Virus genome (UHGV): UHGV-1370838
Source: a virus
Reading direction: 5' to 3' (one strand)
DNA: 38,152 bases
The translations under genes and the position numbers were made by a program. Below are positions 26-37,982 of the stretch, in pieces. Under the pieces are notes generated by a model that had not been told where the DNA came from, made no database searches, and was given only the letters and a program-made list of their open reading frames with translations. Within the stretch, counting starts at the first letter, position 1. Each line of letters begins with the position of its first letter.

Positions 26-2500
26 TTATTGCGGAGTGACATCCTGAGGTCGCCACCAGTATGTCTGGTTAAACTCTTTCTTCGAACGTTGCTCCATTTT
101 ACGCAAATAGCCTGGTGAAAAATACTCCTGCATCTGGTTAAAGATCATATGATCGAGAGCCGCCTTTAAGTACCAGAGATTCGCACCTGGCATCAAACCT
201 TTCCCCAGCTTCACCAGATCACCACCAGTCTGCTCACTCTTCCCTTCCACAGCATTTAACGGTATGCCCTGAGCAATCTTCACTACGTCATCAACCAGAC
301 CAGCTACCGGGCCAAGCATCGACGCCAGCGCGCCGCTTCCGTACCTAGTGTGATCTGACAATAAAAAGTCACCGTAAAGGCCAAGACCACCACCTTTCAG
401 TAGAGCACCAAGCCAAAATTTAGCAGCATCTTCTCCTGTCATCTCGCGAGGATTACGACCAGACGCAAGGTCGTTAAGTTGCTGCGACAAAGCGCCAAGA
501 ATGGTCGTACTGGCAATAAACGTCGCAATATATGCCGCACGCCCACCAGCAGACGGCATACCCATAGCGCGTGACCAGTGACGCATAACCACCGAGATAG
601 GGAACGATTTAAACAGGAAAACACTTCTCGTTAATTCACCTTTCCATGTTCCACGCTGAATACCAGAACCGGTTATCAGTTGCTCACGTGCTCCCGGTGT
701 AATAACAGCCATATCAACTTCTTCAGTTACGGCACCGAGCAGTTTACGCATTGCCTCAAATTTCACGCGTTCAGGCTCACCAAGATGTTTAACTGCTGAA
801 TCAGGGATACGCATAATGCTTTCCGGTGTCAGCATCGTATTATTGCCGTTCCCCCAGTCCTCCTGTTGCGCCAGCTTCCATACGCTCCAGTCTGTGTCAG
901 TAATCCCTTTGCTTTTCAGGATACGAAAATCAGAATCATCGAGGCTACGAAGGTCTGGTGTCCGTGACACTACTTCTCCCAGGCTTCCCATCATGGTTAC
1001 GCCATAGGCGCGCTTGTGCGCATCTGACCATGCTGTAAGCCCACTGGCACGCATTACCGCCGTTGCCGCCCAACGAGACACAGACGGCCCCATATTATCC
1101 ATCGCCCAGCGGTTAACGCTGCCAAGTAGAGATTCCATCGCCAGACCAGCGCGGCGCGCCCGCACAAGTTCTGTACGGTTCGTTGGGTCCATAGCTTCAA
1201 GCTGGTTGCGGAATAACTGGTTCATTGGAAGGTTGGTAACCTTCGCAGACAGATACATGGTTCCAAGATCAGAGAACGATGACAGCAACGCGGATCCGAG
1301 TCTGCTGGCAACCAGCCAGTTGCGGATATTGTCAGACCATCGCGCGATGTGCGGATTCGCTACAGGCTGTGTCTTTCCGGAAATAAAGTTGTACAGATTC
1401 TCTGTGTTGTTCGCCAGCCGCTCGACTTTACCGGTTTTACTCGGGTTAGCTGTTGCCGTTTCTGCCTTCACCTGATCAAGAAGAGAGCGGAAAACATGAT
1501 CGGGGTTTGGGCCATATGTTTCCACCAGTGCAATATCTTTACTGATACCTTCAAGGTGACCGACCATGATTTCCCATAGAGAGCGATCGCCATAAAGTTG
1601 CTGATATTGCAGATAGGAATCTGCATCTTTGAAATGTATCTGTCGTGATGCATTACCACGGTTAGCACGTGCGCCGGAAATTCGCATTCCGGTATCAGTA
1701 AGCTTATTCAGCCCACCAGTAGCGATCGTGTTATAAGCCTCTCCAAGAAATGCAGACAACTCGGCATCGTTCATCAGTTGTCCATCGGCTCGGGTATAAT
1801 ATTTGCGATCCAGCTTACCTATAACATCGCTAACCCATTTATCTTTTGATACCGCCCCAACCTTTTCCATAGAATGATGTTGAGGGATCCCCCAGTTTTC
1901 GAGATAGCCAATGTCCCCACCAGCATCATTAAACCGGCGGCGCAGCAGCTCTGTAACTTCTCTCCACGCCTTAGCACCTTTTCTTGCTTTAGCATTGCCA
2001 GTATTTTGCCCCCGCATTTCATATACCAGGTCACGTACGCCCGCTTCATCTTCAAACAGACCAAAAAAGCGAGGATCAACTGCTTCGAATGCCTCCTGCA
2101 ATTGACTCAATGCATAATCACGGGTGGCTTTTGTTCTGGATTCAACAGAGAGGAAATTCGATTTACCGTCTGCATTAAAAGCAATAGTACGGTTAAGAGC
2201 GCCAAGTTTCCCATCAGCCCCTTGATAGCTATTGATAAATTTATCCAATCTCTGACGTGCGGCTATAGTGAGGGCCACACGACGTTTCTTTAATGCCGCT
2301 TCTCGCTGTAATTCTTCAGATGCCAATTGTGCTGCACGATACAACCGTTCTGATTCGGAAAGTTGTCGCCACGACATCGGGTCATCACGAGCAATGGAGC
2401 GCATATTTCGATAAATGCGGTCTTCAATGTTCTGTATTTCTCGCGCCGTTAACGTGCGCTGCGCCGCCTGCTGGACCGCTTGTATACATTCCTGTCTCAT
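26..2500 (-). CDS. large internal virion / ejection protein (last gene of structural operon)
   Basis: 824-aa ORF; ATG at 2498-2500 preceded by GAGAGG SD; follows the other large virion proteins on the same strand. Confidence 0.6.
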   Translation of the reverse strand: MRQECIQAVQQAAQRTLTAREIQNIEDRIYRNMRSIARDDPMSWRQLSESERLYRAAQLASEELQREAALKKRRVALTIAARQRLDKFINSYQGADGKLGALNRTIAFNADGKSNFLSVESRTKATRDYALSQLQEAFEAVDPRFFGLFEDEAGVRDLVYEMRGQNTGNAKARKGAKAWREVTELLRRRFNDAGGDIGYLENWGIPQHHSMEKVGAVSKDKWVSDVIGKLDRKYYTRADGQLMNDAELSAFLGEAYNTIATGGLNKLTDTGMRISGARANRGNASRQIHFKDADSYLQYQQLYGDRSLWEIMVGHLEGISKDIALVETYGPNPDHVFRSLLDQVKAETATANPSKTGKVERLANNTENLYNFISGKTQPVANPHIARWSDNIRNWLVASRLGSALLSSFSDLGTMYLSAKVTNLPMNQLFRNQLEAMDPTNRTELVRARRAGLAMESLLGSVNRWAMDNMGPSVSRWAATAVMRASGLTAWSDAHKRAYGVTMMGSLGEVVSRTPDLRSLDDSDFRILKSKGITDTDWSVWKLAQQEDWGNGNNTMLTPESIMRIPDSAVKHLGEPERVKFEAMRKLLGAVTEEVDMAVITPGAREQLITGSGIQRGTWKGELTRSVFLFKSFPISVVMRHWSRAMGMPSAGGRAAYIATFIASTTILGALSQQLNDLASGRNPREMTGEDAAKFWLGALLKGGGLGLYGDFLLSDHTRYGSGALASMLGPVAGLVDDVVKIAQGIPLNAVEGKSEQTGGDLVKLGKGLMPGANLWYLKAALDHMIFNQMQEYFSPGYLRKMEQRSKKEFNQTYWWRPQDVTPQ

Positions 2501-16401: not shown

Positions 16402-16478
16402 GTGGCATTAGCTCAGTCGGACAGAGCAACCGCCTTCTAAGCGGTTGGTCGCAGGTTCGAATCCTGCATGCCACGCCA
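16402..16478 (+). tRNA. tRNA-Arg (anticodon UCU)
   Basis: Cloverleaf folded by hand: acceptor GTGGCAT/ATGCCAC, D-stem GCTC/GAGC, anticodon stem ACCGC/GCGGT with loop CTTCTAA, T-stem GCAGG/CCTGC with TTCGAAT loop, discriminator G, encoded CCA. Confidence 0.9.
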
Positions 16479-17052: not shown

Positions 17053-17064
17053 GTGACATGTCAC
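17053..17064. repeat. perfect 12-bp palindrome GTGACATGTCAC (copy 1 of 3)
   Basis: Read directly; 5 bp after stop of 16677-17048. Confidence 0.8.
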
Positions 17065-17068
17065 AAAC

Positions 17069-17097
17069 AGCCAGCCGATGAGCTGGCTTTGTTTTAT
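17069..17097 (+). terminator. intrinsic terminator
   Basis: AGCCAGC / GCTGGCT stem followed by TTTGTTTTAT. Confidence 0.6.
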
Positions 17098-17138: not shown

Positions 17139-18614
17139 TTAAGCATAGGGATCGTAATCTGTGATGGCCTTGCCTTGCTGGTTCTGCTGCCCGGGAATTC
17201 GCAGACGCTTCGACACAGGGAACGCAAACGTCAGCAGTAGCGCATCGCCTTTACCAGGCGAACGCCCAAGCCGCTCCTTGATATCTTCCTTCGGTTCGAT
17301 AACGATTTTACCGTCCACTCGAACTTTGTACTCTGCCGCCGACAGATCGTCCGCTGTTTCCTGGTCATCCAGCATCCCGCCCAGCCTCAGCCATGTCTTG
17401 CATGAGTTGAACATCTCCCCACGCTTGTTGAGCATCTGCTGGTCAGTAGACGCGCCACCGAACGGAACAAGTTGCCATGTGCGCCCCCAACCGTCACCGA
17501 TTGACTTCAGACCGGTACCGTAACCAAAGTCGATGAACACTGCGTCAGCCTGATACAGGTCTTCAAAGTCAGCGATACGCTTCGCCATAATCAGATCGTC
17601 GGTAGTCTTGTTGCCAGTCCACAGCACCTTACTGTGTAGCCCCTGCCGCAGGTATATCACCGCGTCATCAACGCCTGAATATGCCGGGTCAACACCGATT
17701 ATCACCGGAGCATGCGCCACCTGCGCAGCGGTTACCACCCGTTTCATTGCCTCATCAGTAAGACCGGTAGGGATAAACTGCAATTCAGATGCATCAGGGA
17801 ATATGCCGCGCACACGGATTTTAACGAAGTCGCTGTCTTCCCCGTAGTCATCAACCCATTTCTGCAACTGCTGTTTGTTAGTGCCTTCCACCGTCCGGCT
17901 GTCAATCTGCGCAGTTTTCCAGCGGTGTTTATATTTGCGGAAACATTCACGGAATCGCCCGGTATTACGCGTCGGGTTTCCGAACGCCACCCAGATAATC
18001 TCAGTGTCTTCGTCCGTTAGCGCACCTTCGGCAACTTCCCACACCAGATCCGCAATGTTCGACGCTTCATCGAATACCACGATGATGCGTTTGCGCTCGT
18101 TGTGTAGTCCGGCGAATGCCTCAGTGTTGTGCTCAGACCAGGGGATTGCGTCAGCTCGCCACCGCTTGTCGTGCCCAGGATCATTGCTGTACATCGCGGT
18201 AGCGGTACAGGTAAACCAGTCTTTCGTGATAGCAAGGTTCGACCACTTGATAATTTCCGGCCAGGTCTTCGTTCGTAGCTGGTTGTCGGTGTTGGCGGTC
18301 ACCACGACCTTACAATCCTCGCAAGTGGACATGCCCCAGTTGATCAGCATTGAGATGAATGCGGATTTACCAATACCGTGACCAGAAGCGCGTGCCAGCA
18401 TAAGCGGCTGATAGCGCGTCTCTGGATTCTGCAGGTGATCACGTATCTCTCGGAACGCATCAGCCTGCCACTGACGTGGGCCGGTGGCATGTGCCAGTTC
18501 AGTCCCCTCTTCCCCCCACGGGAACGCATAGAGGGCATAGCCAAGCGGATCGTGAGTGAACCCTGCAATATCCTCGATCAACTGCTCTTCAGGAGATAAC
18601 GCTGTATCTGTCAC
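17139..18614 (-). CDS. terL: terminase large subunit
   Basis: 491-aa ORF with Walker A-like GHGIGKS; GTG start overlapping terS stop. Confidence 0.9.
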   Translation of the reverse strand: MTDTALSPEEQLIEDIAGFTHDPLGYALYAFPWGEEGTELAHATGPRQWQADAFREIRDHLQNPETRYQPLMLARASGHGIGKSAFISMLINWGMSTCEDCKVVVTANTDNQLRTKTWPEIIKWSNLAITKDWFTCTATAMYSNDPGHDKRWRADAIPWSEHNTEAFAGLHNERKRIIVVFDEASNIADLVWEVAEGALTDEDTEIIWVAFGNPTRNTGRFRECFRKYKHRWKTAQIDSRTVEGTNKQQLQKWVDDYGEDSDFVKIRVRGIFPDASELQFIPTGLTDEAMKRVVTAAQVAHAPVIIGVDPAYSGVDDAVIYLRQGLHSKVLWTGNKTTDDLIMAKRIADFEDLYQADAVFIDFGYGTGLKSIGDGWGRTWQLVPFGGASTDQQMLNKRGEMFNSCKTWLRLGGMLDDQETADDLSAAEYKVRVDGKIVIEPKEDIKERLGRSPGKGDALLLTFAFPVSKRLRIPGQQNQQGKAITDYDPYA

Positions 18615-19207
18615 TGATTACCATCCTGACGTTCTTTGAGTCGCTTCCTGGCTGCCGCTATGCGATCAGCAATTGTCACATTCACATTAACATCCAGGCG
18701 TTCTTTGAACGCGTTGACGTCGACGTGCTTACCAATCAGTTCGAGGTTCTTCACCTTGTCAGGCCATTTAATTTTTTTGAGGATTGTCTCTATCGAATCC
18801 TCGTTCATGTTCATGATGGTCGATGACAGATCAAAGCCACTAAGCGTAGTGCGCCAGATTTTCGGCCACTCGCGGATTGGCTTAAGGCTCCCATCGTCGT
18901 TGAGGATGTCGATCACGTCCATCTGGTCGATCTCCACCAGGCGCATGAGAACGTAATCAGCACTGACGCGCATTCGTTTGTTGCGCTCCTCCATCAACTC
19001 GGCAATCCGTTTTTGAATGCGTTCATCGCGCATCATGACACTGGCTTTAACTGCCGCTGTATTTGGGGAGAATCCTGCGTTAATCGCTGCCTGAGTCTGG
19101 TTTTCAGGCGTTTTGATGTATGACTGGCAATAAGCCTCCTGCATTGCTGTTAGTGGCTTAAATTGCGTTGATTTGCGTTTATAGGTTTTAGGTTCAGCAG
19201 GCATCAT
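18611..19207 (-). CDS. terS: terminase small subunit
   Basis: Start moved to the ATG ATG pair at 19202-19207; the longer ORF prefix is low-complexity Thr/Ile/Val translated from DNA repeats. Confidence 0.7.
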   Translation of the reverse strand: MMPAEPKTYKRKSTQFKPLTAMQEAYCQSYIKTPENQTQAAINAGFSPNTAAVKASVMMRDERIQKRIAELMEERNKRMRVSADYVLMRLVEIDQMDVIDILNDDGSLKPIREWPKIWRTTLSGFDLSSTIMNMNEDSIETILKKIKWPDKVKNLELIGKHVDVNAFKERLDVNVNVTIADRIAAARKRLKERQDGNQ

Positions 19208-19214
19208 AACCACC

Positions 19215-19246
19215 GTGGTAATAGTTACCGTTGTGGTAATAGTACC
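19215..19246. repeat. tandem GTGGTAATAGT(T)ACC repeats in terS leader
   Basis: Two copies at 19215-19229 and 19233-19246; GGTAA and TTACC half-sites in everted orientation. Confidence 0.5.
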
Positions 19247-19316
19247 ATGCAAAATAAAGCCGCCATAGTTGGCGGCAGTATTCAAAACCATCAAATTCAT
19301 CATGCATAATCTACTC

Positions 19317-19328
19317 GTGACATGTCAC
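19317..19328. repeat. perfect 12-bp palindrome GTGACATGTCAC (copy 2 of 3)
   Basis: Overlaps stop codon of 19325-19672, 14 bp upstream of the longest terS ORF. Confidence 0.8.
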
Positions 19329-19672
19329 ACTATTAATTTCGTTTCATGCCAGCCTTTAGTCACCCAGCATTGTGAGTCACCATTACACGGACATGAATTA
19401 ACTGGAACTCTCTCGCCGCACTTACCGCAAAGTTTTCTGCTGATCGATTTTATACGCCCGCGCACACGTGCATCATCCTGGCGGATCAGCAGCGCGATGT
19501 ACTCGGCCATTTCATAGGGATCGCGACCAGGGCGCCGGGCGGCGCAGTTCCGCGCCAGCATTTCCTGCTCCTGCTTATCCAGCACCAGTTCAATTTTGCG
19601 CTCACCGGCGGCGGACTGCCGAGCGCGCTGCGCGGCTTTGCGTTCTGCGGGGGATTTAGCCACGAATCGCAC
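19325..19672 (-). CDS. putative DNA-binding regulator (ribbon-helix-helix-like N-terminus, Cys-rich C-terminus)
   Basis: 115-aa ORF, GTG start; strand-helix-helix pattern KIELVLD...EMLARNCAARR...PYEMAEYIALL and CGKCG...CPC motif; immediately upstream of terminase genes. Confidence 0.45.
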   Translation of the reverse strand: MRFVAKSPAERKAAQRARQSAAGERKIELVLDKQEQEMLARNCAARRPGRDPYEMAEYIALLIRQDDARVRGRIKSISRKLCGKCGERVPVNSCPCNGDSQCWVTKGWHETKLIV

Positions 19673-19778
19673 TCCACGCCAGATTGATTAATGACTCCCA
19701 GGCAATATAAACCCGGATACCAGCAGCCAGGCCGAAACCAATCACCATGGCATAAAGCAGAGCGTTGCACTTGTTCAT
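19656..19778 (-). CDS. 40-aa single-pass membrane peptide
   Basis: ATG at 19776-19778 preceded by AGGAGGTGAAGTA; TAATG overlap with upstream stop; hydrophobic core. Confidence 0.45.
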   Translation of the reverse strand: MNKCNALLYAMVIGFGLAAGIRVYIAWESLINLAWSAIRG

Positions 19779-33051: not shown

Positions 33052-34911
33052 ATGTCTTCTTTAAAATACAGAACTGATATAGGCGGACTCAGGGCTATTG
33101 CTGTCATGGCAGTTGTCCTTTATCACTTCGGAGTCAAAGGGTTTTCTGGTGGGTTTTCAGGAGTAGATATATTCTTTGTTATATCAGGGTATCTGATGAC
33201 TGGAATAATTTACACAAAGATAGAAAATGAAAACTTTTCACTGTTAGGATTTTATCTTGATAGGGCAAGAAGGATTATACCTGCTTTAACTGTAGTTTCA
33301 GTTGCTGTTCTGATAGTTGGTTACTTCATTCTTTTACCTTCTGAATATGAATACCTGGCTCAACACGTAAGAAGTAGCCTTTTATTTTTCTCAAACGTTG
33401 AGTATTACCATAGCATTGATTATTTTGATACTGCATCAAAGCAGAAATGGCTTCTTCATACATGGTCGCTTTCTGTAGAGTGGCAGTTTTACATGGTATA
33501 TCCAATCATAATGATGGTAATTGCAAAGCTATTGGGCGCTAAGCATATAAGGTATGTTGTTGCCATCCTTGCAATTATATCATTTACTGCCTCAGTGTAT
33601 CTTTCTTATAATAATCAGGGGGCTGCATTTTATCTTCTGTCAAGCAGAGCTTGGGAGATGCTGGCTGGCGGCCTTGCCTACCTTCTTCCTACTATACAAA
33701 ATTCAAAACGCACTGCTGTATTTAGATGGATTGCCATAGCCTTTGCAGTATCGGGGATAGTCTTGCTTAACAGCTTAATGAAGTGGCCTGGGTATCTTGC
33801 CTTAATACCAGTCGTTTCTACTTTCTTTGTCATTTATCTTGGATGTAAAGATAACCTGTTACTTGATAATGCATTATCTCAATGGGTTGGGAAAATTTCA
33901 TACTCGGTATATCTGGTTCACTGGCCCATAGTTGTCTATATGTCAATGAATAAGATGGATGATATGGTTTATACAGTATCAGGTGTTGCCTTATCAATTC
34001 TTATTGGTGCCGCATCATTTTATTTAATTGAAAACCCTTCAAGAAAGGCACTTTCAAAATTTAAAAACGGCAGGTCCTTGAATGAATTAACTTTAATCGT
34101 GCTACCTGTAGGTGGTGTAGTTGGTTTGTGCTTCGCTGTACTATTGCTATCTGGAATTCCATCAAGGTTTTCGTTTGTCACAATGACGTCCGAACAGCTA
34201 AAAGAACAAATGAACAGGTATTGGGTTGATGGAGACAAGCCTCACCCTGTACCGAAGACAGGTGACAAAAAAATAGTAATAATCGGTAATTCTCATGGCA
34301 TAGATCTGACTTATGCACTTACTGAAAATGGGATGAAGGGTGATATAACTTATATAAGAACTACAAACTTATGTTCAAACTTTGGTTATACACCAAACGA
34401 CATGCCCTATGTAGAAAAGTGCAAAAAAATATTCAATGACGTGATCTCATCTCCAGCCATAGCTGAAGCTAACATTATAATCCTTCATGATGATTATGGC
34501 GTTGGCGATCTGTTCGGGATGCTTTACTCTATAGGCAAAATACAGGAGAGGACTAAAGGAGAAGTTATTGTATTTGGGCCTAAGATGAAGTTTACGGCAC
34601 AGCCAATGGAAATAATTAAGTCTGCTTTTAAATCTGGCGTAAACACAGTTGATGGGATAAATAAATACTCTAAAAAGTATTATGACAATAGTAGAGTTGA
34701 AATTAACAATACGATAAAAGGCTATCTTGGTAGCAACCAGCATTCGTATAAATACATAGATACGCTTGCCGAGCAGTGCGGAAAGTCAATGAATTGTGAC
34801 ATCCTTTCTACTAAAGGTGATTATCTTTACTTTGACAATAGTCATTTCACTCTAGAAGGCTCAAGGGAGTTTGGGAAAAAATTAAAAAATGACAAGCCAT
34901 TTATTTTTTAA
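33052..34911 (+). CDS. O-antigen acetyltransferase (acyltransferase-3 membrane domain fused to SGNH-like domain, OafA/Oac-type)
   Basis: 619 aa; N-terminal GGLRAIAV...LYHF motif and about 10 TM segments; C-terminal soluble domain with GNSH; visibly AT-rich versus flanks. Confidence 0.85.
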   Translation: MSSLKYRTDIGGLRAIAVMAVVLYHFGVKGFSGGFSGVDIFFVISGYLMTGIIYTKIENENFSLLGFYLDRARRIIPALTVVSVAVLIVGYFILLPSEYEYLAQHVRSSLLFFSNVEYYHSIDYFDTASKQKWLLHTWSLSVEWQFYMVYPIIMMVIAKLLGAKHIRYVVAILAIISFTASVYLSYNNQGAAFYLLSSRAWEMLAGGLAYLLPTIQNSKRTAVFRWIAIAFAVSGIVLLNSLMKWPGYLALIPVVSTFFVIYLGCKDNLLLDNALSQWVGKISYSVYLVHWPIVVYMSMNKMDDMVYTVSGVALSILIGAASFYLIENPSRKALSKFKNGRSLNELTLIVLPVGGVVGLCFAVLLLSGIPSRFSFVTMTSEQLKEQMNRYWVDGDKPHPVPKTGDKKIVIIGNSHGIDLTYALTENGMKGDITYIRTTNLCSNFGYTPNDMPYVEKCKKIFNDVISSPAIAEANIIILHDDYGVGDLFGMLYSIGKIQERTKGEVIVFGPKMKFTAQPMEIIKSAFKSGVNTVDGINKYSKKYYDNSRVEINNTIKGYLGSNQHSYKYIDTLAEQCGKSMNCDILSTKGDYLYFDNSHFTLEGSREFGKKLKNDKPFIF

Positions 34912-37355: not shown

Positions 37356-37375
37356 TACTGTATAAATATACAGTT
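37356..37375 (+). promoter_or_regulatory. LexA (SOS) box TACTGTATAAATATACAGTT
   Basis: CTGT-N8-ACAG with AT-rich spacer, perfect dyad; immediately upstream of 37381/37396 ORF. Confidence 0.75.
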
Positions 37376-37395
37376 ATTGCATGGAGAAGATTAAG

Positions 37396-37653
37396 ATGCA
37401 GCAGTATCACTATCCACTGGAAGACGGATTTACCGAAAGGATTCACACGCCGGGAGGCGTCAGGTCACTGGTGGAGGGATCGCACTTGATGAAATTACTC
37501 CGGGATCTCGATAAGGATGGATTTAATGTCGATGGCCCACTTGCCGAACTGACTGCACTGATTAACTACGTCACCAGCTCACAGATGTCTATGCGGGATC
37601 TGCAAACACATCTCGACTATTGTGCCGAACAATTACGAAAACAAACCCGGTAA
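37396..37653 (+). CDS. SOS-regulated small protein, candidate antirepressor
   Basis: ATG at 37396 has GGAG SD (37381 ATG lacks one); 85-90 aa; LexA box overlaps its promoter. Confidence 0.5.
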   Translation: MQQYHYPLEDGFTERIHTPGGVRSLVEGSHLMKLLRDLDKDGFNVDGPLAELTALINYVTSSQMSMRDLQTHLDYCAEQLRKQTR

Positions 37654-37677
37654 ATTTAAAGGCCGCAAGAGCGGCCT

Positions 37678-37689
37678 GTGACATGTCAC
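37678..37689. repeat. perfect 12-bp palindrome GTGACATGTCAC (copy 3 of 3)
   Basis: 25 bp after stop of 37381-37653; preceded by hairpin GGCCGC-AAGA-GCGGCC. Confidence 0.8.
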
Positions 37690-37982
37690 GCTCTTTTTCT
37701 GAATGATAGCCATTCGAAAAATGATGACATTCCACCGCAGACAATAGCAAAGATGATCCCACCAAAGAAGAGAAGGCCAGCCTGCCACCACTCCCACCGC
37801 CATACATCCACAGCGCCAACCATACCAACAATCGCTCCAACAAATGGAATATAGCTCACGATGAAAGCAATGGGGGCTGCAATTATCCAGTGCAATCCCC
37901 ACCATGATTCAAGCCCAGCCATAATTGCTGCCAACTGAAAAAGACCAACGACGATATAAACAATGAATCCTATAGCTTGCAT
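37686..37982 (-). CDS. small Trp-rich integral membrane protein
   Basis: 98 aa; about 3 TM segments; AGGTGA SD. Confidence 0.55.
   Translation of the reverse strand: MQAIGFIVYIVVGLFQLAAIMAGLESWWGLHWIIAAPIAFIVSYIPFVGAIVGMVGAVDVWRWEWWQAGLLFFGGIIFAIVCGGMSSFFEWLSFRKRA

Follow-up and report, generated by a model that had tools for sequence, protein, structure and literature searches.

A 12-bp palindrome, GTGACATGTCAC, is repeated at three terminator-adjacent places in the phage genome analysed here, and its pattern, GTGAC-N2-GTCAC, co-occurs with a family of small phage proteins predicted to combine a ribbon-helix-helix (RHH) fold with a zinc ribbon (RHH-Zn); both observations are new. The best overall explanation, to which we give a probability of roughly 0.4, is that a dimeric RHH protein with a Cys4 zinc ribbon has GTGAC-N2-GTCAC as its cognate site and acts there as a boundary or roadblock regulator.

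The genome and the RHH-Zn locus

The DNA studied (UHGV virus genome UHGV-1370838, 38,152 nucleotides; this whole stretch is referred to as the window) comes from a temperate podovirus of the epsilon15/phiV10 type (Uetakevirus) and represents its genome, complete or nearly so, in circularly permuted form. The late and early-right genes are mostly carried on the minus strand. In the order of that strand, replication genes and the DUF1064, Ea22-like and DUF551 genes are followed by the gene for a 40-aa peptide, the RHH-Zn gene, terS and terL; after terL come a convergent gp49/66-family gene on the plus strand and then the structural operon. The features that concern us are as follows.

19656..19778, minus strand: gene for a 40-aa single-pass membrane peptide (phrog_5525)
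19325..19663, minus strand: RHH-Zn gene, 112 aa, predicted RHH and zinc-ribbon protein (phrog_536; relative of N15 gp46)
19325..19672, minus strand: mechanical ORF for the RHH-Zn gene, 115 aa
19317..19328, no strand: S1, palindrome GTGACATGTCAC, holding the TGA stop (19327..19325) of the RHH-Zn gene
19259..19276, minus strand: T1, intrinsic terminator (GCCGCC-AACTAT-GGCGGC and a T-run), between S1 and terS
19207..19239, no strand: two repressor-type operators, TTACC-N5-GGTAA, just ahead of where terS likely starts
~19204..18611, minus strand: terS, likely start at 19204
18614..17139, minus strand: terL
17069..17088, plus strand: T2, terminator hairpin
17053..17064, no strand: S2, identical palindrome, between the ends of terL (minus) and the convergent gp49/66-family gene (plus)
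37678..37689, no strand: S3, identical palindrome, where the structural operon ends
37660..37677, minus strand: T3, intrinsic terminator

The RHH-Zn gene is the counterpart of phiV10 p55 and epsilon15 gp49, which are the final genes ahead of terS in those phages, and the epsilon15 record remarks on the similarity of gp49 to N15 gp46. An Rfam scan of the whole window returned one tRNA and no other RNA element.

Three identical palindromes adjoin terminators

The exact 12-mer is present in three copies in the 38 kb window (at 17053, 19317 and 37678). By our own estimate, a sequence of this length should contain about 0.002 exact copies by chance, and the recurrence is therefore far above chance. 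The TGA stop codon of the RHH-Zn gene corresponds to positions 2-4 of S1, in agreement with the preliminary description, made from the sequence alone, which had placed this stop inside a palindrome; S1 itself starts 8 nt outside the range covered by that description (19325-19778). S3 likewise includes a TGA stop, that of a gene for a 98-aa membrane protein (37686..37982, minus strand), with which the structural operon closes.

Terminators adjoin all three palindromes. S1 comes first and is followed 40 nt later by T1; the epsilon15 record has a rho-independent terminator stem-loop annotated at the equivalent place, and the phiV10 record carries a one-base 'putative rho-independent terminator' feature at its last base. 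T2 lies 4 nt from S2. The scan reported this hairpin on the plus strand alone, and its bidirectional reading comes from inspection of the sequence: in the reverse direction, in which it comes after terL, an A-run precedes the stem and GTTTG follows it. By our own reading, T2 may thus be a bidirectional terminator. T3 directly abuts S3. S1 thus lies where the early operon ends, S2 at the 3′ end of the terS-terL operon and S3 at that of the structural operon.

Several known elements were considered for the palindrome and rejected. TGTGA-N4-TCAC has the wrong spacing for a CRP site, and the CTGT-N8-ACAG of a LexA site is absent. There is no Rfam match to a known RNA element, and as RNA the palindrome would form merely a 4-bp hairpin. 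Within the literature library searched, no paper contained GTGACATGTCAC.

The RHH-Zn gene and its predicted product

A 115-aa protein had been described from the sequence, and the ORF is present as described (19325..19672, minus strand), but it is probably three codons too long. Considering that nearly all homologues are 112 aa long and begin with MAKSPAERK, and that GGAG lies 8 nt upstream of a GTG at 19663, the true gene is most likely 19325..19663 (112 aa). That this start codon is GTG and not ATG is due to its overlap with the final codons of the peptide gene (CGT GGC TAA).

The protein gave a full-length match to the HMM of phrog_536 (E 1.2e-53, residues 5-114 against profile positions 3-114 of 115); the 'transcriptional regulator' label of that profile is an annotation, not an assayed function. 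Database searches recovered ~730 clusters of the family at 90% identity, or 147 representatives when the cut-off is 50%; almost all members are 105-130 aa long, and they come from prophages of Escherichia, Salmonella, Klebsiella, Citrobacter, Yersinia, Serratia, Vibrio and Pseudomonas. Existing labels are 'hypothetical' or, evidence-free, 'transcriptional regulator', the latter being the RefSeq label in the phiV10 and epsilon15 records. The ZX5 and phiV10 papers are silent on the gene.

An alignment of 56 diverse members, with identity down to 24%, showed conservation of a basic N-terminal helix (ERKxxQRxR), a strand (G-x4-E-x2-L) followed by two helices, an invariant CxxCG..LP motif and two more cysteines. 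C79 and C82, which make up the CxxC, are invariant and C99 is almost invariant, while the fourth cysteine is found at 91/93, for a family spacing of CxxC-x8-C(xC)-x5-C. The N-terminal half is predicted to adopt the beta-strand/helix/helix arrangement of an RHH fold. An RHH-like N-terminus and a C-terminal Cys cluster had both been noted previously; the predicted fold supports the first, and the CxxC, invariant across the 56 homologues, bears out the second. Taken together, the structural predictions support a 112-aa product with a putative RHH DNA-binding fold and a C-terminal Cys4 zinc ribbon.

The AF2 model built from close homologues was poor (pLDDT 62.6) and a model from diverse homologues was used in its place. 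Foldseek comparisons with the PDB and BFVD gave matches limited to one RHH protein (TTHA0139) and a fragment of the same family. The window protein had no Pfam or NCBIfam match and no Pfam RHH model above threshold; sub-threshold Pfam matches to RHH_5, RHH_1 or RepB-RCR_reg were seen in just 2-3 of the 56 members. A direct search of PDB sequences with the protein gave no significant match, Pfam, NCBIfam and PADLOC all failed to match the 40-aa peptide, PADLOC had no match to the RHH-Zn protein either, and no convincing structural match was obtained for the zinc cluster.

When the family profile was compared with PDB sequences, weak matches to TraR and YbiI were found (E 0.06-0.11). A long helix followed by a CxxCGxxhP zinc motif is common to RHH-Zn and the DksA/TraR C4 zinc finger, but the latter has CxxC-x17-CxxC, whereas the RHH-Zn family lacks the second CxxC and spaces its cysteines differently. 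Pfam zf-dskA_traR matched 0 of the 56 members, and we rejected this relationship; the resemblance may be generic to zinc ribbons. With the RHH repressors and antitoxins (Arc, Mnt, CopG, ParD, MazE, TacA), the protein shares the predicted beta-alpha-alpha fold and a probable association with short symmetric DNA sites. It differs from them in its additional conserved basic N-terminal helix and C-terminal zinc ribbon, in having no partner toxin and in that its sites are not at its own promoter.

The stop-codon palindrome is conserved in epsilon15-like phages

In epsilon15, the exact palindrome is found at the same three places as in the window, with the equivalents of S2 and S3 at 2142 and 19517. 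phiV10 contains two exact copies, the equivalents of S2 (2262) and S3 (19493); a third was inferred across the record ends, and an end-joining check did not recover it. The RHH-Zn stop codon lies inside the same palindrome in 69 of 70 related viral loci. In these loci the last codons of the gene vary (KLIV, KLSV, KLPL and others) and the DNA 3′ of S1 can differ wholly, with a 70-aa gene inserted in 24 loci and a umuD-like moron in one. Since the palindrome is kept despite variable last codons and variable downstream DNA, the palindrome itself is under selection. A second site is located 1.8-3.2 kb downstream of the RHH-Zn gene in 48 of 69 related loci. SPC32H was considered as a natural knockout and rejected: although its protein has had the N-terminal helix replaced, the remainder of the gene persists, as do S1 and S2.

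Site and protein occur together in distant phages

Distant RHH-Zn homologues were studied on the contigs encoding them and in complete phage records. Homologues with 35-46% identity in N15, P2-like, Serratia and several Vibrio-type phages are accompanied by GTGAC-N2-GTCAC:

N15 (gp46): three sites, GTGAC(TG/CA)GTCAC
N15-like plasmid prophage (L086): one site, inside repA
Yersinia P2-like phage YenM_201.16: one site, GTGACGCGTCAC
P2-like prophage (L089): one site, GTGACATGTCAC
Salinivibrio-type locus (L091): three sites
Vibrio phage K308: three sites
Vibrio phage VPHZ6: two sites
Serratia phage-plasmid-like locus (L092): two sites, in tandem

The partial loci around distant homologues contain seven sites in 58.7 kb, compared with 0.056 expected, and when half-sites at spacing 2 are ranked, GTGAC comes first or joint first of the 1024 possible 5-nt sequences. 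No GTGAC half-sites at spacing 1 or 3 were found in the window, epsilon15, phiV10 or the first set of distant loci. In N15 and the Yersinia phage, too, the spacer is always 2 bp, and there are no sites at spacing 3. Vibrio phage K308 has one unrelated N3 site.

The position on the stop codon also recurs. The stop lies inside a site in three lineages (Uetakevirus, N15 and the Yersinia P2-like phage); in VPHZ6, the site begins 1 nt after the RHH-Zn stop, and in another locus (L090) a one-mismatch site is found directly 3′ of it. A Pseudomonas lineage whose homologues are ~25-30% identical has a hybrid, GTGACAGGTAAC, on the stop codon and also carries 4-6 copies of GTTAC-N2-GTAAC. Three copies of GTGACCGGACAC are present in an Aeromonas phage with a weak RHH-Zn homologue. 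In all, the family and GTGAC-N2-GTCAC co-occur in at least seven phage lineages, and both are absent from P2 and lambda.

This co-occurrence suggests that the RHH-Zn protein and the palindrome are probably a protein and its cognate site. The gene and its sites would, as the best explanation of their distribution, travel as a small mobile unit through many temperate phages, laid out with one site on or just after the stop codon of the gene and one to a few copies elsewhere. An RHH strand pattern, E-x-R-x-K/R, goes with GC or AC site centres in four loci; this covariation of the beta-strand with the central dinucleotide is suggestive only, as its register is uncertain and the sample small.

A proposed boundary or roadblock function at operon ends

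The RHH-Zn gene is the last gene of the early rightward operon in the window phage, and it is this terminal position, together with the terminators found beside the sites at the ends of three operons, that leads us to favour a boundary or roadblock function. We infer that an RHH-Zn dimer would bind the palindromes, with its basic helix and beta-ribbon reading the half-sites and the centre. Once made, the protein would occupy its sites and halt RNA polymerase there. At S1, polymerase would be halted just ahead of the protein's own stop codon, resulting in negative feedback through truncated non-stop transcripts, and the same block would keep early transcription out of terS. Protein bound at S2 and S3 would reinforce the terminators that separate convergent units.

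There are precedents for this. One report describes LacI as autoregulating by a roadblock at O3, an operator located, like S1, at the 3′ end of the regulator's own gene (PMC3711431). Another describes DNA-bound proteins that stop RNA polymerase before the stop codon, in complexes rescued by trans-translation (PMC13584721). LacI differs from the protein studied here in that it is a LacI/GalR HTH protein, not an RHH protein, and in that O3 acts with O1 by looping; the RHH-Zn site, for its part, actually contains the stop codon, and its roadblock effect would be by analogy with O3. We give this mechanism, roadblock with LacI/O3-like feedback, about one chance in three.

Several observations count against it. 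Sites are found inside genes elsewhere, in N15 repA and in a parA-like gene in L091, and in terS, portal and head genes of the Pseudomonas lineage if GTTAC-N2-GTAAC is its site, so that a tight roadblock would be harmful in these lineages. In K308 and L091, one site lies 10-20 nt before the terS start codon, where a roadblock would imply repression of packaging genes. A polymerase coming from terL would meet the terminator before it reached S2, the mechanism does not account for the zinc domain, and in SPC32H both S1 and S2 have been kept with a protein whose N-terminal helix is replaced.

Comparison with MatP and matS

E. coli MatP is an RHH protein whose site, matS, is GTGAC[AG]N[TC]GTCAC (PMC3603311, PMC6907758). 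The half-sites of matS and of the phage site are identical; matS is 13 bp long (GTGACRNYGTCAC, with an RNY centre), whereas the phage site, with N2, has 12 bp and a spacer one base pair shorter. At the level of DNA recognition, the RHH-Zn protein may by analogy work like MatP. One alternative is that the protein, bound to dispersed palindromes, organises or marks phage DNA rather than controlling transcription, possibly by bridging or looping sites, by keeping SMC complexes (MukBEF) off, or as a scaffold related to segregation or packaging. In addition to the matS half-sites (PMC3603311), such a role would account for sites in any context, including the insides of genes, for sites that bracket the early region in N15, L091 and VPHZ6, and for the ~2.5-6.5 kb distances between sites in the Pseudomonas lineage. 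Also in its favour, tight linkage of a gene to its cis-site is typical of DNA-transaction systems such as parS/parB.

Against this, alignment of a 56-sequence RHH-Zn profile to E. coli MatP with hhalign gave a probability of 0.2%, that is, no sequence homology, and MatP was not among the PDB sequence matches of the profile. The four-helix bundle and C-terminal coiled coil of MatP are absent from RHH-Zn, which has a Cys4 zinc ribbon instead. With no profile homology and without the flanking domains of MatP, the RHH-Zn protein does not belong to the MatP family. It further differs from MatP in being phage-encoded and in having the stop codon of its gene inside a site. The 12-bp spacing is strict in the enterobacterial phage genomes examined, in which the 13-bp matS spacing was never met, and one to three sites per genome are few for an organiser. 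The RHH-Zn family is present in Pseudomonas too, which, to our knowledge, has neither MatP nor MukBEF. On balance, we consider an architectural role of this kind unlikely.

A stronger version, in which the family is a phage-borne MatP/matS counterpart that shares its origin with MatP and organises or marks phage and phage-plasmid DNA, seems to us more doubtful still. An earlier survey reported no 13-bp matS in prophages (PMC3603311), and a 12-bp variant would escape it because that survey looked for the 13-bp pattern. If such a counterpart were real, it could loop the early or morphogenetic region or exclude SMC-type complexes, and the site embedded in the stop codon would ensure joint inheritance and loading of the protein with its site.

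A possible late-gene regulator

Owing to its position, the RHH-Zn protein might alternatively be a late-gene regulator like lambda Q or RinA that binds a site 3′ of its own gene and activates or antiterminates the late genes. The arrangement is the same as for RinA, whose gene is the final early one, placed immediately ahead of the late or terS operon and followed by a DNA site (PMC3152322). In Uetakevirus, K308, L091, L107/L108 and VPHZ6, the RHH-Zn gene comes last or almost last among the early genes, directly ahead of terS or the lysis genes, and a site separates it from the first late gene. The order of gene, promoter-like GTGACA-18-CATGAT at S1, T1 and terS resembles that of Q, PR′ and tR′. 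Q proteins also have a zinc-binding domain. Furthermore, Q-type family models match none of the early-region proteins scanned, in line with the preliminary description, which had recognised no Q-like late regulator, and no Q family protein was found in the window.

The RHH-Zn protein and its family, however, do not match the Q models either (Pfam Phage_antitermQ, Antiterm and Phage_antiter_Q), and, unlike Q and RinA, they have additional sites at operon ends and inside genes. The promoter-like sequence is weak (9/12) and at chance level, with two matches found against 2.6 expected, and it is lost in the 24 loci with a small gene directly after the site; a conserved late promoter 3′ of S1 was therefore rejected. 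S2 and S3 lie between convergent gene ends and not ahead of genes, and the K308 and L091 sites preceding terS are too close to its start codon to serve an activator. Besides gp46, N15 encodes a Q of its own (gp40), and in the P2-like phages that carry the family control is of the Ogr type.

The late operons of the window phage also carry their own repressor-type operators. The direct repeats ahead of terS are due to the two TTACC-N5-GGTAA operators listed above, and the epsilon15 record annotates their equivalents as binding sites for the repressor. Exact operators are found just upstream of terS, the structural operon and the tailspike gene or operon; the lysis region has one-mismatch matches only. 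Since the late operons have operators of their own, a separate late activator is not obviously needed, and we regard a Q- or RinA-like role as rather improbable.

Sites near the packaging genes

A packaging accessory that marks DNA near terS, cos or pac for terminase is a very improbable reading of the same positions. The terS-terL pair is flanked by sites in the window phage, the K308 and L091 sites precede terS closely, and the site in the P2-like prophage L089 falls in a large intergenic region close to the portal gene, the expected location of cos. In N15, however, neither cos nor terS has a site nearby; S3 and the repA and parA sites have no connection with packaging, and the L092/L093 sites are 2.6 kb from Nu1.

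The 40-aa peptide is a neighbour of the protein and site

The preliminary description had pointed to a translationally coupled 40-aa hydrophobic peptide with a strong AGGAGG, and the gene and its Shine-Dalgarno sequence are present as it stated. AGGAGG lies 7 nt ahead of the ATG, which shares bases with the stop codon of the preceding DUF551 gene (TAATG), and the 3′ end overlaps the RHH-Zn start by 8 nt, the arrangement of a gene translationally coupled, as judged from these overlaps, on both sides. The peptide matches the phrog_5525 HMM over its full length (E 7e-30, positions 1-40 of 40). Its family comprises ~45 protein clusters, in which the length is kept at 40-41 aa, and is characterised by a hydrophobic N-terminal stretch and a conserved WESLINLAW tail.

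The slot directly upstream of the RHH-Zn gene was compared across 75 loci. It is occupied by an ASCH-domain gene in ~42, by the peptide gene in 16 (window included) and by NinX/DUF2591 in four; the remaining loci have other genes, among them two different small hydrophobic peptides. Every gene in the slot ends ...G-TAA and overlaps the RHH-Zn start, so the coupling is generic to the slot and speaks against a dedicated toxin-antitoxin or exclusion pair. The RHH-Zn family lacks the peptide as a companion in at least six other phage types, N15, P2-like, Vibrio and Pseudomonas phages among them; conversely, the P1-like phage SJ46 encodes a peptide homologue with 53% identity, near which no RHH-Zn relative was detected. 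Neither protein matched any toxin or defence model, and no conserved two-gene unit with a recognisable toxin partner, as in type II systems, was found.

An earlier suggestion that the pair is a toxin-antitoxin or exclusion module, the peptide being the toxin and the RHH protein its antitoxin or regulator, could draw on the adjacency and coupling of the two genes, kept in Citrobacter and Klebsiella prophages with peptides 65-78% identical, but did not hold up and is now extremely improbable: the slot is variable, each gene occurs without the other, the palindromes are not at the promoter of the gene pair, and gene order and peptide size do not fit type II systems. Because the slot holds many different genes, we favour a protein and cognate-site system over a toxin-antitoxin pair, next to which the peptide would be an interchangeable accessory membrane peptide, a neighbour and not a partner.

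Implications

The matS-like half-sites raise the question of cross-talk or common ancestry with the Ter-organising system of the host. Since the family is now linked to a defined 12-bp site, the function of RHH-Zn is directly testable, and knowing it would supply a missing piece of the gene-expression programme of epsilon15-like phages, which is poorly understood although some of these phages serve as reporter and biocontrol phages. If the boundary or roadblock reading is true, a binding site conserved on the stop codon of its own regulator would be a natural, recurrent example of LacI/O3-type feedback.

Variation at the RHH-Zn gene, its stop-codon palindrome and the upstream gene position

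Phages of the SPN1S/SPC32H type carry an RHH-Zn gene, coding for the ribbon-helix-helix and zinc-ribbon protein, in which the N-terminal basic helix has been swapped out by recombination (SPC32H, locus L109, 38179-38632). The SPC32H reading frame begins MATTTTRRQNLLELELVLD, and its GenBank annotation covers the C-terminal 78 aa only. Despite this N-terminal replacement, both S1 (the GTGAC-N2-GTCAC copy at the RHH-Zn stop codon) and the further copy S2 are kept. In two IMG/VR loci, L043 and L082, different DNA is joined exactly at the palindrome, directly after S1. The gene inserted in L043 is umuD-like and brings a promoter of its own and a LexA box, and a TTGACT-type promoter-like sequence resembling that of L043 follows S1 in L082. 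The S1 palindrome marks a mosaic junction in these two loci. Upstream of RHH-Zn, the position held in the window by a 40-aa membrane peptide is taken by other, unrelated small hydrophobic peptides of 56 aa (L032) and 28 aa (L039) in two IMG/VR loci.

Other palindromes in the window and in compared loci

Searches of the window and the compared loci also returned palindromes of other sequence:

Window 2234, 10152 and 12985: GATAA-NN-TTATC, three copies, all inside structural genes
L086 (N15-like prophage) 1065, 1336, 3804, 8151, 9481 and 12236: GGGACC-NN-GGTCCC, six copies in 12 kb

The GATAA-NN-TTATC palindrome likewise occurs three times in phiV10, and its copies may reflect chance or an AT-rich bias. 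The L086 repeats are similar to the F/N15 sopC centromere repeats and have no relation to RHH-Zn and its palindrome. The Pseudomonas phage-plasmid-like contigs L107 and L108 contain CGTTAC-NN-GTAACG (six and four copies, respectively, in 20 kb), spaced ∼2.5–6.5 kb apart and often within late genes, as well as an 11-bp GTGAC-N-GTCAC (three and two copies). These palindromes may reflect a shifted specificity of the RHH-Zn family, or else a different protein may recognise them.

Other genes and the ends of the window

Three genes outside the RHH-Zn region were located:

16402-16475, plus strand: tRNA gene, scored at 73 bits by Rfam, with the gp49/66-family gene on one side and the structural operon on the other
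33052-34911, plus strand: gene for an AT3 acyltransferase with a fused SGNH domain, located where phiV10 has its O-antigen acetyltransferase
37381-37653, plus strand: 90-aa gene in the position of epsilon15 gp19, with a LexA-type box just upstream

At the position of the window tRNA, SPC32H carries a tRNA-Arg. The AT3-SGNH gene probably serves in serotype conversion and superinfection immunity. The LexA-type box, CTGTATAAATATACAG (37358-37373, plus strand), is perfect, and the 90-aa gene converges on the structural operon and on S3, the third GTGAC-N2-GTCAC copy. It probably encodes the SOS-controlled antirepressor of SPC32H-like phages. The last gene of the structural operon lies at the high end (37686-37982, minus strand), and the gene just upstream of it is found at the low end (26-2500, minus strand); the window therefore appears to be a complete, circularly permuted genome of about 38 kb.

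Repressor-type operators and the terS reading frame

Inverted repeats of the type annotated in epsilon15 as repressor operators were found at the following positions:

16065, 19207, 19225, 22104, 22166, 24497, 25209, 25271 and 37304: TTACC-N5-GGTAA
24112, 24449, 30823, 32757 and 33001: the same repeat with one mismatch

A 230-aa terS reading frame (18611-19303, minus strand) runs through operators and through T1, the intrinsic terminator between S1 and terS. In relatives, terS is annotated as 197 aa, with its start at 19204, and the Pfam match begins at residue 51; the longer form is probably an artefact. The TTACC-N5-GGTAA repeats occupy the immunity region and also directly precede terS, the structural operon and the tailspike gene, and because of these latter positions the late operons may be under the direct control of the prophage repressor.
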